Shown one piece after another: positions 2,865 through 8,069 of a stretch of 64,000 nucleotides of DNA. The translations under genes and the position numbers were made by a program. The stretch is from the sequence record NC_028903.1, one strand, 5' to 3'. Each line of letters opens with the position of its first letter. Within the stretch, counting starts at the first letter, position 1. The stretch is from Escherichia phage 172-1. The notes below the pieces were generated by a model. The model was not told the origin of the DNA, searched no databases, and saw only the letters and a list, made by a program, of their open reading frames with translations.

Positions 2865-3182
2865 CTATTTATAACTTACACCATCACCTTTTACAGCTAT
2901 TGTAAGTGGCGATCTGGTGTTTAATGGGGTGAAGTTCATGTCCAGCTCATATCCCACTTTGAGAATCAATTTCAACAATGTGTCGATGGAGAACTTTGAA
3001 AGCTGTCCATTCATGAGGCTACTAATCCTCGGCTGGCTAACACCTAGCTTCTCTGCGGCAACACACTGCGACCAACCTTGATCACGAATTAACTTCGTAA
3101 GAATAATGATCAGCTTGGACTTCAATGAAAGCATGTTGGCCTCTACAGGGTCTGTACTTATCAGCTCGAACGGGTTTTTCAT
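2865..3182 (-). CDS. XRE-family HTH protein resembling HigA-type antitoxin
   Basis: 105 aa; HTH core AAEKLGVSQPRISSLMNGQ followed by FSIDTLLKLI; ATG at 3180-3182. Confidence 0.6.
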   Translation of the reverse strand: MKNPFELISTDPVEANMLSLKSKLIIILTKLIRDQGWSQCVAAEKLGVSQPRISSLMNGQLSKFSIDTLLKLILKVGYELDMNFTPLNTRSPLTIAVKGDGVSYK

Positions 3183-3206
3183 ATAAAATTCCTATACAAT
3201 AGGCAT

Positions 3207-3232
3207 AAAAAAGCCCCAGCCGTAGCCGGGGC
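3207..3232 (-). terminator. rho-independent terminator-like hairpin
   Basis: GCCCC-a-GC / GC-c-GGGGC stem preceded on plus strand by A6, giving a T6 tail on the minus transcript. Confidence 0.45.
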
Positions 3233-3381
3233 GGTTATTAACGTGATACTGCTTCCATGAATCCTATCATAAGTATCAATAAGGTGATAATAACACCAAA
3301 AAGCATACCACATAGGAAGAAAAATCCACCTTCCCCTAAATATGAAATAGCTGATTCCACGGATAACTCCTACAGCAACGC

Positions 3382-3403
3382 AAAAAGCCGCTCAAAGGCG
3401 GCT
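3382..3403 (-). terminator. rho-independent terminator
   Basis: AGCCGC / GCGGCT stem with 6 nt loop, U-run on minus transcript; follows gene 3484..3927. Confidence 0.5.
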
Positions 3404-3483
3404 ATGTGGAAGCTTCAAATGGGGAGAGGGCACGACGCGACAGAAAGAGCGTCATAGTACTAAAAGAGGGGACTGTATTCCTA

Positions 3484-3927
3484 CTACTTAACCCTTGCCT
3501 CTTTGATGGGGTCAATGTATTTCTCAACGCCCCACTTGTGTTTACTGTCTGCGTAGAAAACATCAGGCGCACACTGGCTACTTTTAGGGAATGCTTGAGG
3601 GTCTTTCGTGCTACCTTTAAACTTCTGCTTACCACGGGTGCGACCATTACAGAAGATTTCTAACTTCTTCTCCTCTTCTGTTTTAGCTCCCCCGCTCTTT
3701 AATAAAGAACGTTTATGATCGGCTAACAATAACGCATCAGCACGATGAACGCGATGGCCTACACGCTTTGCCACACTAGAAGGAATATGAGATTCAGCCT
3801 CAGCCTTTGCAGCACGACGTTTTAAACTGCGCTTACTGACGTGATTGGTTGCCTTTGGCTTCTCTTTCTCCAGTTCAGAGATAGAAAAACAACGCCCGCC
3901 TTTCATGCTGATTTTTGATTTAGCCAT
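3484..3927 (-). CDS. basic hypothetical protein
   Basis: 147 aa, K/R-rich; no recognisable domain. Confidence 0.45.
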   Translation of the reverse strand: MAKSKISMKGGRCFSISELEKEKPKATNHVSKRSLKRRAAKAEAESHIPSSVAKRVGHRVHRADALLLADHKRSLLKSGGAKTEEEKKLEIFCNGRTRGKQKFKGSTKDPQAFPKSSQCAPDVFYADSKHKWGVEKYIDPIKEARVK

Positions 3928-3996
3928 TGTCTTATTCCTTTTAGTGATAAGTTATATCGGGCAAGCCCATCAAGGTGACAGGCTTGAACAAATAAC

Positions 3997-4206
3997 TCAA
4001 TCAAGTAAACCGAATGACTTCCAACTGCGTAGAAGGATTGTACCATCATCCATAGTCACGCATAACTTTAGTAGTTTCTTATTGGCACTGCTTACCGTTG
4101 TAATTCGTCCGGTTGTGCATTTACCTTTATTGCTGTAAAGATATATAACACGACGGCCTAACAAACGAGATGGCGCTTTCTTAAACTCTGAAATATTAGT
4201 GATCAT
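3997..4206 (-). CDS. hypothetical protein
   Basis: 69 aa ORF in tightly packed operon. Confidence 0.4.
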   Translation of the reverse strand: MITNISEFKKAPSRLLGRRVIYLYSNKGKCTTGRITTVSSANKKLLKLCVTMDDGTILLRSWKSFGLLD

Positions 4207-4427
4207 AATGCTTGATACCTTTGAATATGTTCAATACGGGTAGATTGAGCAAATGACGCTTTAACCGCCATCTTTCTAACTTCTTCCTTACGTTGGTTAG
4301 TGTGCACAGTATCCCAATGATTGTTATCACGTTGGCGCTGTAATATCTTACTACATTTGCGATGGTTCCCCGTGCTGCGATGTTTCTCACAAATAGGACA
4401 CTTGCCAAAATTATTACTGAATATCAT
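4203..4427 (-). CDS. hypothetical protein with Cys/His cluster
   Basis: 74 aa; CPICEKHRSTGNHRKC suggests a small zinc-binding motif. Confidence 0.4.
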   Translation of the reverse strand: MIFSNNFGKCPICEKHRSTGNHRKCSKILQRQRDNNHWDTVHTNQRKEEVRKMAVKASFAQSTRIEHIQRYQAL

Positions 4428-4642
4428 TTTCTTAATCCCATCTTTCTTAAGATACGGCCTAACGTTGTTTCTTGCGTGATAATATAGCTGATCGCCTCAC
4501 GTTCCAACGTTTCAATTTTCATTGGCGACGGATACCATTCACCAGTAAGCACGCATTTACATTCAACGCCATACTTTTTAGATAGTCGGTAATGTTGACC
4601 GTTGACAAGATTCCGATAAATCGTGGTATGCGTAATTAACAT
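4424..4642 (-). CDS. hypothetical protein
   Basis: Track start is GTG; nearest ATG at 4640-4642 (MLITHTT...). Confidence 0.4.
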   Translation of the reverse strand: MLITHTTIYRNLVNGQHYRLSKKYGVECKCVLTGEWYPSPMKIETLEREAISYIITQETTLGRILRKMGLRK

Positions 4643-4672
4643 GATCGTCACCTTTGATTATATTCTTTGATT

Positions 4673-4695
4673 AATGCACTGAATCAATGCACTGA
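4673..4695 (-). repeat. tandem decamer AATGCACTGA x2 (3 nt spacer) upstream of gene 4424..4642
   Basis: Exact direct repeat read in sequence; candidate operator. Confidence 0.6.
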
Positions 4696-4729
4696 TAAAA
4701 GAAAAGGCGCTACCCGTTAAGATAGCGCC
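4696..4729 (-). terminator. rho-independent terminator
   Basis: GGCGCTA / TAGCGCC stem, 10 nt loop, UUUUCUUUU tail on minus transcript; follows 4754..5653. Confidence 0.55.
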
Positions 4730-4753
4730 TCATGTTTATTATAATCGTATTAC

Positions 4754-5653
4754 TTATACTGCCTGACGTGCCGCCATAATCTCAGCTGCCTTGCGCAATA
4801 CTTCTTCCTCTTCTTCTTTCGCAGCTTGTTCGGTACGGGTAGCAACCGTTGAAGAGATACGACCGCGCAGACTTTCTAACTTCTCCTGAATAGCCGCAAT
4901 AGTCTTTTCCATTTCATCAGCGTATGAATCGAGCGATTCCAGCTCCTTGCTTGATGCGTTCATCAGATAATCGTCTGAGATCGCTACCGTTGAGGCCGTG
5001 ACTTTCTTGATGAGTGAATCAAAGGACTTTTTAACCTTGCCCACGTCTTCACTCAAGGCAATAGTGTTATCACTGGTAGCGCCATTGCGCTCATCAGCCA
5101 GCAATTTGGCTTCAATACGGATTGCATTCAAGCGTTCAACTAAAGAGTAAATATCCTGATTAAAATCTTCCTTATTTTTCGCCGGGATTTGAAGGTGGGC
5201 CGCCACGTTGTCATTGCAACCTTTGAAGAAGTTAGGATTATCGACTTCAATTTCACGGCCTAAAGCAAAGTTTTCGAAAGCATTTGACCAGCGAGCGCGG
5301 TTTTGTTCCATTTTGGCCTTAATTTGCGCTTCTTTCGCATCTTCTTTCGCTTTCGCTTCACCTTCCAGATTAATCCACTTTTTACGCCCATTTGCCGCAT
5401 CGGTGTTGAACTTGATAGGAGTTAAGAAAGTAATTGCAGTGGCGATCACGTCCATATCGCGGAAACGTTCGGTTAACAGAAAATCAACTGCCGACTGCAA
5501 TACGTCCAGCTTTTTACCGTTACTGCGGAAGTGCTGCAAGTGCCCTAACAGAAAATTAGAAACATCCTGTTTAATCGCCGCGTTATTGCTGCGGATATTG
5601 TTAGCCAGTGCGTTAAAGCCAGATTCTTTTACCAGATTGAAAATTTTAGCCAT
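4754..5653 (-). CDS. first early protein after leader (function unknown)
   Basis: 300 aa; ATG at 5651-5653 with GGTGA RBS; helical, charged C-terminus. Confidence 0.55.
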   Translation of the reverse strand: MAKIFNLVKESGFNALANNIRSNNAAIKQDVSNFLLGHLQHFRSNGKKLDVLQSAVDFLLTERFRDMDVIATAITFLTPIKFNTDAANGRKKWINLEGEAKAKEDAKEAQIKAKMEQNRARWSNAFENFALGREIEVDNPNFFKGCNDNVAAHLQIPAKNKEDFNQDIYSLVERLNAIRIEAKLLADERNGATSDNTIALSEDVGKVKKSFDSLIKKVTASTVAISDDYLMNASSKELESLDSYADEMEKTIAAIQEKLESLRGRISSTVATRTEQAAKEEEEEVLRKAAEIMAARQAV

Positions 5654-5754
5654 GATATTCACCTTTCAATTGTAAGGGCACTATGCCCCGCTCTCTATGA
5701 GCTTTTTAAGTCGCCATTGACTTATCAATAAACACTCATCATTAAGTAATTATT

Positions 5755-5802
5755 GATAAGCGGGGCGGTCTTATCAGGAGTTAACCTTGCCGCCCCCTTA
5801 TC
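5755..5802 (-). other. long stable hairpin in early leader (candidate RNase III or regulatory site)
   Basis: GATAAG-c-GGGGCGG pairs with CCGCCCC-CTTATC, 13 bp stem with one bulge, 21 nt loop, ~100 nt upstream of first early ORF. Confidence 0.4.
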
Positions 5803-6473
5803 CGTGATGTTTCATCTGGTATCTTTAATTAGTCGCTATAAACGAAGCCGACCTGATAGCGATGATCAATCATCACAATAAGGCAGTGCGTCCGACTCTA
5901 TTTAATTACATTGCTGTAACCGTCGGCAATATCGTTTATTATACTTTCGCTCTCGCTTATCCTTTATATCAGCTCTCAATCGCTAGTCATCGCCCACTAC
6001 GGGATACTGTTGCGAAAAAGTCACTAACCGCCTAACATTCCGGCGTTTTATATCTTTCGGCGAGTTTACTACATAAACCGACTATGTACTTTCATCATAA
6101 GACGAATCTCAAGCCGTTCGCATCGTAAACGTTCACACTAAACCTTATTGTTAAATAGCAATTTGCTACCCTTTAACCACCCCCCGCCGCTCTCAATTGA
6201 GCGTTAATTCGTCGGGCTTGTCTGCCCTGATTAGCTTTTTCACTGTAGCACCGTGTTAGCGATGGCCGCCGCTACCCTTAACCGTGGGCGATTAGCTTAA
6301 ACCGTTGCGTGTACTCAATGAGTCCGCTTATCAGTGGTGACGTTTCCAGTTAAGGGATTGTAAAACTGTTTACCCTGATGTTTTAGGGAGTTTTACGCCG
6401 TTTTATCTGGTATGCTTTCCGATGGTTATTATCTTCCAGCATATTTAACCGATATATGGGGACGTTTAAATTA

Positions 6474-6484
6474 TTAAAGAGCGG
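6474..6484 (-). promoter_or_regulatory. boxA-like element (CCGCTCTTTAATAAT on minus transcript)
   Basis: Matches rrn/lambda boxA core GCTCTTTAA. Confidence 0.45.
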
Positions 6485-6572
6485 TAAATCTGTCAGTGTG
6501 CTTTCTCACACTACGCAACTGTTAGCCGTTGTTACGCTTTTCACTGAAGCGGTGTTTTGCTTGAGTGTGCTC

Positions 6573-6601
6573 ATTATGGACCATGATGTTTTCGCTGTCA
6601 A
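6573..6601 (-). promoter_or_regulatory. sigma70-type early promoter P3 (TTGACA-N17-CATAAT)
   Basis: -35 at 6596-6601, -10 at 6573-6578 read on minus strand. Confidence 0.6.
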
Positions 6602-6706
6602 TCGCTTTTTTAATCTTTTTCGTCGTTCCCTTTATTGGGAGGATATATCAATCAGCTTTATTTGATTGAAGATTAAGCGATAAGGCTTAACTCATGATTC
6701 ATATTG

Positions 6707-6717
6707 TTAAAGAGCGG
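6707..6717 (-). promoter_or_regulatory. boxA-like element (CCGCTCTTTAACAAT)
   Basis: Near-identical to E. coli rrn boxA GCTCTTTAACAA. Confidence 0.5.
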
Positions 6718-6834
6718 TTACTACATTCACAGCTTAACACGTCGTGTTAGCTTGTCAAACTCTTTTTATCATCTTCTTTTATTCTTTTCCCTTATCTCGC
6801 GTGAATCTATGCGAAAGGGCAAGATGATAAATTT

Positions 6835-6845
6835 TTAAAGAGCGG
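6835..6845 (-). promoter_or_regulatory. boxA-like element (CCGCTCTTTAAAAAT)
   Basis: ~25-40 nt downstream of P2 start site. Confidence 0.45.
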
Positions 6846-6876
6846 GGATGTTTCACGTCATCGCTGACTTGTGCTC

Positions 6877-6904
6877 ATTATAGGTTAGGCTTTCCAGTTG
6901 TCAA
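6877..6904 (-). promoter_or_regulatory. sigma70-type early promoter P2 (TTGACA-N16-TATAAT)
   Basis: Perfect consensus hexamers; -35 at 6899-6904, -10 at 6877-6882 on minus strand. Confidence 0.7.
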
Positions 6905-6943
6905 ATACTTTTTCAAGTATTTTTTCACTTTCTAGCCTGATTT

Positions 6944-6953
6944 TTAAAGAGCG
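6944..6953 (-). promoter_or_regulatory. boxA-like element (CGCTCTTTAAAAA)
   Basis: Inside repeat copy A. Confidence 0.4.
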
Positions 6954-7092
6954 TTTAAAGCTGTATGGCTCCCATAACACCATTTGATAATCAGATAACC
7001 TGCGATTATTCCGGGGAATGGTATCCGCCTGCCTGCGTCTGACTTGCTTCACTCACTAGGGAGTTACTTGAGCGGTCATCTTGTCTTTCTAA

Positions 7093-7173
7093 GCTCATTA
7101 TAGTTCAGGCTTTCCGGCTGTCAAATACTTTTTCAAGTATTTTTTCACTTTCTAGCCTGATTTTTAAAGAGCG
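7093..7173 (-). repeat. ~81 bp direct repeat copy B (promoter P1 plus AT hairpin plus boxA)
   Basis: Near-identical to 6873..6953. Confidence 0.8.
7097..7124 (-). promoter_or_regulatory. sigma70-type early promoter P1 (TTGACA-N16-TATAAT)
   Basis: Perfect consensus hexamers; -35 at 7119-7124, -10 at 7097-7102 on minus strand. Confidence 0.7.
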
Positions 7174-7174
7174 G
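7164..7174 (-). promoter_or_regulatory. boxA-like element (CCCCGCTCTTTAAAAA)
   Basis: Inside repeat copy B. Confidence 0.4.
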
Positions 7175-7293
7175 GGCAAGTTTCCTTGCCTTGTATGTTT
7201 TACATCGTACCCGATACAAATCAGTATACGCCAGCTTTCACGAAGTGCAATAGGGTAAGGCAAATTATTTTAAACTTTTTCACTATAGGAAGA

Positions 7294-7305
7294 TAAAAGA
7301 GCGGG
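7294..7305 (-). promoter_or_regulatory. boxA-like element variant (CCCGCTCTTTTA)
   Basis: Sixth copy of the AGAGCGG core in the same orientation. Confidence 0.35.
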
Positions 7306-7411
7306 CGCACGTGATACATCAAAGGAAACGGCTTGCATTGCAACAATAGGCGGCCTAAAACGCACTATAGCGAGCTAAAAGGGAGTAAGGTATACAATCA
7401 CCTTATAAAAG

Positions 7412-7436
7412 AAAAAAGCCTCATGGCGAGGCTTTT
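7412..7436 (-). terminator. rho-independent terminator (weaker on plus strand)
   Basis: GCCTC / GAGGC stem, A6 upstream and T4 downstream on plus; ends the 8855..7511 operon. Confidence 0.6.
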
Positions 7437-7510
7437 AGGGAGGTTTTAAAGCATCAGATAGATTATGACCATAGGCATGACCACGGCACAATAAAGGAGA
7501 AAGATCAAGC

Positions 7511-7876
7511 CTATGGATTTACACATTGACCATTACCGGACTCAATTTCATTCATGGACTCATCAAAGAGCGTCAACGATGAGCGCATCAAGTGATTGAC
7601 CGTGATTTGTTTACCAGTGATTTCATTTACCAGTAAAATAGTTTTACTATCTGATTGCACATGATCAAAATCATTTACATGCAAAATAATAACCTTAGGT
7701 GACTTTTTACCGGTTTCATAGTTTTCTATAAGGTAGGTACATTGCAAGCCGTCAACCGTAGCAGGGGAAAACGTTGCAGCCTTAACGCTACCCATAGCCG
7801 ATAACAGCACACCTAACAGAAGAATGACCAGAAAAAAGCCTACAACCGTTTTAATGACGAATCTAATAAACCACAT
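7511..7876 (-). CDS. secreted early protein (signal peptide)
   Basis: 121 aa; N-terminal hydrophobic segment followed by AxA-like cleavage region. Confidence 0.5.
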   Translation of the reverse strand: MWFIRFVIKTVVGFFLVILLLGVLLSAMGSVKAATFSPATVDGLQCTYLIENYETGKKSPKVIILHVNDFDHVQSDSKTILLVNEITGKQITVNHLMRSSLTLFDESMNEIESGNGQCVNP

Positions 7877-8069
7877 AACAATAAACCTCTTTAATTAGTT
7901 TAAGAATATCGAAAGCGGCAACAATCAATAAATAGTTTAAAGAAACGAAGCCAATGACAAACAAAAACAGAAAGAACACAACCGGACACCTAAAAAACGT
8001 AAGAATAAAGCATATCAGCGACGAACAACGCCACTGCAACAACGAATAAGCAACGCAAAAAATAATCAT
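7863..8069 (-). CDS. small membrane protein
   Basis: 68 aa, strongly hydrophobic. Confidence 0.35.
   Translation of the reverse strand: MIIFCVAYSLLQWRCSSLICFILTFFRCPVVFFLFLFVIGFVSLNYLLIVAAFDILKLIKEVYCYVVY

Follow-up and report, generated by a model that had tools for sequence, protein, structure and literature searches.

The tandem decamer between early genes 124 and 123 of a Kuravirus coliphage, probably the paired arms of a conserved RNA hairpin

In the window (the whole stretch of 64,000 nucleotides from Escherichia phage 172-1, NC_028903.1, analyzed here), the decamer AATGCACTGA is found twice on the plus strand, at positions 4673 to 4682 and 4686 to 4695, with the 3-bp spacer ATC between the copies. 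The question raised by this locus is what such a repeat may do, if anything, just ahead of an early gene. The earlier note had proposed a candidate operator or RNA-binding site. Its description of an exact 10-bp direct repeat with a 3-bp spacer proved accurate, as did its placement at an early gene, just downstream of a terminator and just before the next ATG, and the gene itself (4424..4642) is real; the gap to the ATG, given as about 25 nt, needs correcting.

The locus and its repeat

The window belongs to a Kuravirus (phiEco32-like) coliphage, as the local region matches 96 phage records with identity up to 96%, all of them phiEco32-like podoviruses (Kuravirus and sister genera), including NJ01, SU10, ECBP2, and phiEco32. 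The local genes all lie on the minus strand, hereafter the sense strand, and the features framing the repeat are as follows.

4754..5653, minus strand: homologue of gene 124 (phi32_124; SU10 CDS120), 299 aa counted from the ATG at 5653
4704..4731, minus strand: intrinsic terminator hairpin after gene 124, a 12-bp stem followed by UUUUCUUUUAU
4648 to 4655 and 4640 to 4642, minus strand: Shine-Dalgarno sequence (SD) AAAGGUGA and start codon of gene 123, read from the sequence
4424..4642, minus strand: homologue of gene 123 (phi32_123), 72 aa, PHROG 12675

Gene 124, whose open reading frame spans 4754..5662 (299 or 302 aa, depending on the start), is the first gene of the main early operon, and its 3' end lies 22 nt ahead of the terminator. 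In SU10, CDS120 is the first gene behind a long spacer bearing sigma70 early promoters (PMC4281155). Gene 123 starts at the ATG at 4640 to 4642 and is preceded by a hairpin-containing leader, and a ribosome-binding site is annotated in phage Paul at the same place as its SD. Neither Pfam nor PHROGs assigned a function to the homologues of gp124, gp123, gp122, and gp121, and the structure search with gp123 assigned no fold.

The terminator is canonical, with a GC-rich stem-loop followed by a U-run (U-tract at 4695 to 4705), and it is annotated in the records of phages WFI101126, 4E8, and SU7; the promoter and terminator table of SU10 lists neither this terminator nor any promoter at this location (PMC4281155, S2). 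Its stem covaries in the distant relatives L039, L041, L046, L048, and L050, where the arms read GGCGCUAUC/GGUAGCGCC, GGCGACUGUC/GAUGGUCGCC, or GGCAACUAUC/GGUGGUUGCC. Since no conserved promoter was found just after the terminator, the downstream early genes on this strand require terminator read-through. Along the sense strand, the terminator stem (4731..4704) is followed by UUUUCUUUUAU, TCAGTGCATTgatTCAGTGCATT, AATCAAAGAATATAATC, the SD AAAGGTGA, five bases, and the ATG at 4642, so that 8 nt separate the terminator stem from the repeat, and 30 nt separate the repeat from the start codon of gene 123.

At the DNA level, the true repeat unit has a period of 13 bp, the two units reading TCAGTGCATTGAT and TCAGTGCATTAAT on the sense strand and being identical at 12 of 13 positions; the sense-strand decamer copies read TCAGTGCATT, and both contain the octamer AGUGCAUU. 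Two head-to-tail copies of such a unit are what a slippage-type duplication would leave. The window contains six exact direct repeats with a length of 10 nt or more and a period of 10 to 20, compared to 0.5 ± 0.6 in 40 dinucleotide shuffles; thus, the decamer repeat is not a random coincidence, short slippage duplications are common in this genome, and the decamer, being one of the six, is not extraordinary as a repeat. Tandem Repeats Finder (TRF, score of at least 30) reported 28 other short tandem repeats, the decamer site not being among them, and the window shows no excess of the decamer at other places (6 matches with at most one mismatch, 6.17 expected). The other five of the six exact repeats, with periods of 12 to 18, lie at 5329, 8323, 22585, 22899, and 52176. 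We could also notice that gene 124 and gene 123 have nearly identical ribosome-binding regions (AAAGGTGAatATCATG and AAAGGTGAcgATCATG; 5654 to 5672 and 4643 to 4672, respectively, minus strand) and that AATCAAAG is present twice upstream of gene 123, 13 nt apart, continuing the period-13 pattern of the decamer.

An RNA hairpin formed by the two copies

An inverted repeat gives the stronger signal here, with 20-nt arms at 4663 to 4682 and 4684 to 4703 that are 80% complementary; at 4663 to 4703, it ranks as the second longest in the first 9 kb. The octamer AGUGCAUU is self-complementary when G.U pairs are allowed, and it follows that the two decamer copies can pair with each other. In the RNAfold prediction for the sense strand, both copies lie in one hairpin beside the terminator, composed as follows.

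4663..4703, minus strand: extended 41-nt RNA hairpin, 17 bp with two 1x1 mismatches
4698 to 4703 with 4663 to 4668, minus strand: lower stem UUCUUU:AAAGAA, terminator U-tract with a downstream A-tract
4695 to 4696 with 4670 to 4671, minus strand: AU:AU pairs (RNAfold)
4685 to 4693 with 4673 to 4681, minus strand: upper stem of 9 bp (RNAfold and RNAalifold)
4686..4695, minus strand: decamer copy 1, distal to gene 123, with 4685 to 4693 (AGUGCAUUG) as the 5' arm of the upper stem
4673..4682, minus strand: decamer copy 2, proximal to gene 123, with 4673 to 4681 (CAGUGCAUU) as the 3' arm of the upper stem
4682..4684, minus strand: hairpin loop AUU, in the region of the 3-bp spacer, the same in all relatives

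The 136-nt region folds with a z score of -5.6, and the 42-nt element alone reaches -12.9 kcal/mol (z = -4.4), a stability equaled by 1 of 500 shuffles, compared to -9.0 kcal/mol for its antisense strand. The U-tract of the terminator extends into the 5' side of the longer hairpin, and one helix directly adjoins the other, with zero unpaired bases in between. The extended hairpin can form only in transcripts that pass the gene 124 terminator. The Rfam scan of positions 3000 to 8000 (E value of at most 5) returned chance-level matches only, none of them at the repeat. A lambda nut-like boxB reading of the hairpin was set aside, as the hairpin follows the terminator and is well removed from every boxA. 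Taken as a whole, the most suitable reading of the tandem decamer is that its copies are the arms of a small, conserved RNA hairpin, an mRNA element of an ordinary kind.

Conservation of the pairing in close and distant relatives

The intergenic region was gathered from 28 distinct sequences, comprising GenBank phages of three genera, IMG/VR contigs, and metagenome contigs; pattern scans of viral contigs and metagenomes gave close relatives only, and the distant relatives were reached via protein look-ups. For RNAalifold and the pairing counts, we used 21 distinct relatives. RNAalifold recovered the same two helices as RNAfold, with 98.3% of the cells paired, a value for which the shuffle control is uninformative, and five of the nine upper-stem pairs vary on one side and yet pair (GC to GU or UA to UG, in either direction). 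By our own count, five of the six substitution types at paired positions keep the pairing, compared to an expected fraction of about 0.3 to 0.4 (binomial tail, ~0.01 to 0.04). In the clade with this exact hairpin, and among these 21 close relatives, no double compensatory changes occur, only one-sided wobble changes. The natural variants share one shape, with predicted energies from -10.4 to -15.8 kcal/mol on the sense strand and only from -2.8 to -10.4 kcal/mol on the antisense strand, and for every variant, the sense strand gives the more stable fold of the two.

The two copies of the decamer do not evolve alike. Copy 1 is nearly invariant among the 21 distinct relatives, its sole change being C to U in NJ01 and IMEP8, which retains a U.G pair. 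Copy 2 varies at three adjacent positions, which read CAT, TGC, TAC, or GGC (CAU, UGC, UAC, or GGC in the RNA); these bases face G-U-G, an arm that tolerates transitions via wobble, and only the G of GGC is left unpaired; EcoN5 and L051 tolerate a G-G mismatch. The direct repeat is exact only in the main Kuravirus group; elsewhere, copy 2 contains GTGCT, GTACT, or GGGCT, and the identity between copies in the other lineages is 5 to 8 of 10 positions. In the SU7 group, where copy 1 begins with CTAG, the copies share 5 to 6 of 10 positions.

The block formed by the terminator and the hairpin is 86 to 88% identical to that of SU7, a phage of a different genus (hairpin, 88%), compared to 53 to 68% for the flanking coding sequences and 50 to 53% for the adjacent noncoding sequences (3' untranslated region, and spacer with SD), and it is the best-conserved stretch within the local 1.1 kb. 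Since the relatives are close, part of this conservation could come from shared ancestry or recent exchange. What appears to be conserved is the pairing and not the direct repeat, and the case for it, given that double compensatory changes do not occur in this clade, is good but not conclusive. The record of phage myPSH1131 (MG983840.1, L030) passes, at its positions 800 to 900, from the middle of gene 124 through a damaged terminator into the middle of gene 123, with the U-tract, the hairpin, and the start and 5' part of gene 123 missing; this gap is either a natural deletion or rearrangement or a poor assembly, and it was excluded as evidence of dispensability.

The distant relatives show comparable arrangements built of different sequences. 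In the metagenomic relative L050, the terminator is followed by a UUUUCUUU:AAAGAAAA clamp on a 12-bp stem of unrelated sequence, with 20 bp and one mismatch overall (-21.1 kcal/mol on the sense strand versus -9.2 kcal/mol on the antisense strand), and in L049, the equivalent is UUUUAUUA-loop-UAAUAAAA, with 8 A-U pairs only. A 105-aa gene is inserted directly after the U-tract in L039, L041, L046, and L048, where the gene 123 homologue is displaced; L043 lacks this insertion. The gene 123 homologues of the distant relatives have 72 to 87 aa and mostly carry hairpins upstream, as is the case for L041, L048, and L043, each with two covarying hairpins, designated A and B, at that place.

L041 3790 to 3878, L048 2282 to 2366, L043 3425 to 3504, L039 3816 to 3893, L046 3818 to 3895: hairpin A and, in three of these five metagenomic relatives, also hairpin B upstream of the gene 123 homologue

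Hairpin A (CAAGCC...GGCUUG) has 10 bp and no U-run and features three double compensatory changes between groups. Hairpin B occurs in three of these five relatives, being absent from L039 and L046, and reads CUACAU-UUAA-AUGUAG in L041 and L048 versus UUGCAU-UUGA-AUGCAA in L043, again with double compensatory changes. In L039 and L046, there is no obvious equivalent of the hairpin of the window, and the sole hairpin upstream of the gene 123 homologue covers the SD. Double compensatory changes are confined to analogous hairpins in distant relatives (L041 and L048 versus L043, and hairpin A in L039 and L046) and to the stem of unrelated sequence in L050. Thus, a structured leader of gene 123 and, where gene 123 directly follows the terminator, a clamp on the U-tract recur among distant relatives with sequences that differ.

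Possible roles of the hairpin in early transcription

We propose that the decamer is the trace of an intercistronic RNA stem-loop between early genes 124 and 123, which insulates and stabilizes the read-through mRNA, and we consider the chances of this proposal being right to be about even. The two copies would pair on the sense strand through 9 bp around the AUU loop, and the U-tract UUCUUU would pair with the conserved AAAGAA, giving a helix of 17 bp and 41 nt set against the terminator hairpin. According to the folding models, the single-stranded U-tract would in this way be buried and could not pair with the purine-rich SD of gene 123; the hairpin may also conceal an exposed AU-rich target for nucleases and, as both insulator and stabilizer, would keep gene 123 translatable on the read-through mRNA. 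SD insulation and message stability are thus suggested by thermodynamic modeling. In partition-function folding of the 21 sequences, the mean unpaired probability of the SD window fell from 0.64 to 0.42 when AAAGAA was changed in silico to UUUCUU and from 0.64 to 0.47 when the hairpin was deleted. In the SU7 group, the value dropped from a range of 0.76-0.96 to one of 0.25-0.47, since the freed U-tract pairs with the purine-rich SD, and in the Kuravirus group, the effect was modest (from 0.5-0.65 to 0.3-0.5). The literature search found no Kuravirus transcriptome data covering this region. In this light, the suggestion of the earlier note that the repeat could be an RNA-binding site holds in part: a structured RNA site fits the folding evidence, and a protein that binds it is putative.

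Short conserved stem-loops placed before a gene in a polycistronic transcript are also represented by the stabilizing hairpins of T4 (gene 32 leader and CUUCGG hairpins) and the GUUCGG hairpin of phage 7-11; different from these, the hairpin described here has an AUU loop instead of a UUCG-type tetraloop and an AU- and GU-rich stem, and the pairing of the U-tract is its defining feature. An element acting at the RNA level is supported, and it would be a new example of the familiar intercistronic mRNA hairpin.

A functionless origin has to be weighed against this proposal, namely, that the 13-bp unit was duplicated by slippage and that its conservation reflects kinship or the recombinational spread of a terminator cassette. 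The abundance of short-period direct repeats in the window and the 28 short tandem repeats listed by TRF are in keeping with it; moreover, a second period-13 echo (AATCAAAGAAT / AATCAAAGGTG) suggests that the region is built of small duplications, and in distant relatives, the gene content shifts exactly at this junction, where the 105-aa gene follows the U-tract. However, the block is far more conserved than both flanking coding regions and the adjacent noncoding sequence, the substitutions are biased toward strand-specific changes that keep the pairing, and L050 keeps the architecture with a different sequence, so that we regard a functionless duplication as an unlikely, though not negligible, account.

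The hairpin could instead be part of a two-state switch specific to read-through transcripts, which touches upon how the terminator is read through. The scan for sigma70 early promoters on the minus strand located -35 elements at 7124, 6904, and 6601, and a fourth promoter is visible at about 6758. Downstream of these lies a recurrent motif.

6474 to 6483, 6707 to 6716, 6835 to 6844, 6944 to 6953, and 7164 to 7173, minus strand: five exact copies of the boxA-like motif CGCTCTTTAA

The boxA-like motifs, with one-mismatch copies at 7294 and 7563, are found in the transcribed leader ahead of gene 124, each downstream of a consensus sigma70 early promoter. With at most one mismatch, CGCTCTTTAA occurs 12 times in the window, compared to 4.5 ± 1.9 times in shuffles, and none of 100 shuffles reached 12. 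The motifs are kept in phiEco32, SU10, and distant relatives as CGCTCTTTAACAATTTAAAC (they are also present in L003, L006 to L008, L010, L011, L019, L020, L023, L039, L043, and L046), a sequence that we take to be almost the rrn boxA of Escherichia coli (UGCUCUUUAACAA). Judged from the motifs, their presence suggests Nus-factor antitermination of the early transcripts and is the likely basis of terminator read-through upstream of the hairpin; for phage 7-11, the antitermination strategy "remains to be defined" (PMC8948821), and we found no papers pairing boxA with phiEco32. According to the switch reading, host Nus factors would load at the rrn-like boxA after each early promoter and make the polymerase resistant to termination; only antiterminated transcripts would then contain the clamp between the U-tract and AAAGAA, which would set the fate of the message by unmasking the ribosome site of gene 123 or by directing RNase cleavage as at lambda sib. 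Such a switch is a speculative extension that we hold to be improbable as a whole; if true, it would set the ratio of the gene 124 product to the ~50 downstream early genes.

Other observations concern the same leader. The duplicated promoter module at 6870 to 6960 and 7090 to 7180 (minus strand) comprises boxA, the palindrome AATACTTGAAAAAGTATT (a 7-bp stem with a GAAA loop, overlapping the -35 element TTGACA), and TATAAT, and TRF reports its unit at 6901 to 6927 and 7121 to 7147. Between the last early promoter (-35 element at 6601) and the start codon of gene 124 (5653), the ~900 nt at 5654 to 6570 (minus strand) contain no convincing sense-strand open reading frame and feature several inverted repeats, e.g., 5721 to 5760 and 5747 to 5783; this stretch could serve as a long structured leader, or it could encode an RNA that lacks annotation.

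Somewhat further from what we favor is the possibility that the hairpin is a processing or retroregulation site for RNase III or another endonuclease, cleaved in read-through RNA only, so that the terminator-protected mRNA of gene 124 would be split from the downstream early mRNA, as at lambda sib/tI and the T7 R sites. At lambda sib, the terminator stem is itself part of the extended helix, and RNase III is proven to act there, whereby the upstream int message is destroyed. The likeness consists in an intrinsic terminator whose read-through RNA folds into a larger helix that the terminated RNA cannot form, and in downstream sequence that alters the fate of the RNA according to whether termination is suppressed; the difference is that here the second helix, known from a predicted fold, is separate, abuts the terminator, and precedes the next gene. 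The early RNase III hairpins of T7 shape the ends and the stability of mRNAs. Like R0.3 to R1.3, the element of the window is a conserved intercistronic hairpin on an early transcript made by the host RNA polymerase from tandem strong sigma70 promoters, which feed a long polycistronic early RNA in a T7-like operon design. However, the stems at the T7 sites are longer, consist of two parts separated by an internal loop, and are not located on a terminator U-tract, and their processing is demonstrated, whereas the present hairpin is shorter, built on the U-tract of the terminator, and predicted only.

The formation of the structure only after read-through, its contact with the terminator helix without an unpaired base, and its size (17 bp with two 1x1 mismatches here, and 20 bp with one mismatch in L050) would suit such processing; the hairpin is possibly stacked on the 12-bp terminator stem, the yardstick for RNase III being about two helical turns of double-stranded RNA. 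In the related phiEco32-like phage 7-11, a GUUCGG hairpin located upstream of the sigma gene was likewise proposed by the authors to serve processing or stability (PMC8948821). On the other hand, this helix would rank among the shorter substrates of E. coli RNase III, the equivalent in L049 has nothing but its 8 A-U pairs, and no observation separates a cleavage site from a passive structural role. We give the processing hypothesis a rather low probability but keep it as a live rival.

Returning to the DNA, two identical short sites side by side near a gene start recall direct-repeat operators and iterons, and the earlier note's candidate operator would be a pair of sites through which an early phage or host protein controls the transcription of gene 123. 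Most Kuravirus genomes indeed carry the exact repeat, each of its units comes close to a palindrome (TCAgTGCAtTGA), and an accessory HTH_37 protein, the only recognizable DNA-binding protein among the neighboring early proteins in Pfam and PHROGs, is encoded nearby at 2865 to 3182. However, most relatives lack this gene, which is present in few of them, whereas the element occurs in nearly all those examined, and the decamer occurs nowhere else in the window. Different from such operators, the site has no conserved promoter, the copies evolve unequally (5 to 6 shared bases of 10 in the SU7 group), a spacing of 13 bp does not fit the helical phase and places the two sites on different faces of the helix, and the substitutions break both the DNA repeat and the DNA palindrome while retaining the pairing in the sense-strand RNA. 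An operator is for these reasons very improbable.

As regards the HTH gene itself, the stretch 2865 to 3403 (minus strand) looks like an accessory cassette, in which a 40-aa hydrophobic open reading frame (3238 to 3360) lies between terminator-like hairpins (3403..3386 and 3232..3213) and is followed by the HTH_37/XRE-type gene at 2865 to 3182 (Pfam E value, 1e-16); the HTH part is common to a few relatives only (pEC-N1203-2Af.1, SGF2, and SR02).

A promoter at this site, either a sigma70 promoter for gene 123 or a plus-strand promoter for the phage sigma factor gp36, is the least credible reading: although a software annotation in the SU7 record covers the repeat and a perfect TATAAT lies at 4657 to 4662 on the sense strand, the scan gave no minus-strand hit at 4640 to 4760, the best -35 element (TTGATT) is 19 bp from TATAAT (16 to 18 bp being required), transcription would start within the SD, and the -10 element reads T[A/T/C][T/C/A]AAT in Kuravirus-type relatives, with A, T, or C at the second position where a sigma70 element keeps A2 and T6, and is absent in the SU7 group. 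As for gp36, whose promoters would carry a conserved AATGTA centered near -11.5 ahead of a middle or late gene, the plus strand (tAATGCAcT) shares 6 of 9 bases with the consensus tAATGTAtA (PMC8948821; PMC12276001), but a C replaces the key T of AATGTA, and the site is unconserved (in many relatives, the AATG of the proximal copy is replaced by AGCA or AGTA, and in NJ01, that of the distal copy by AATA). This candidate was rejected, with AATGCA here, AGCACA, AGTACA, or AATACA in relatives, and an antisense orientation toward the terminator and gene 124, where it would drive no gene. Sites for IHF, DnaA, sigma54, and sigma32 were compared with their consensus sequences by eye, and none fitted.

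The locus illustrates that a conspicuous direct repeat may be nothing more than the paired arms of an RNA stem held together in part by wobble pairs, with the consequence that the relevant experiments shift from electrophoretic mobility shift assays (EMSA) on DNA to RNA structure and mRNA fate. Kuraviruses are isolated and studied as candidate therapeutic phages, and the site is the first internal control point of their early operon. Together with the upstream cluster of boxA motifs, the hairpin offers a testable picture of how early transcription may be apportioned in phiEco32-like phages.
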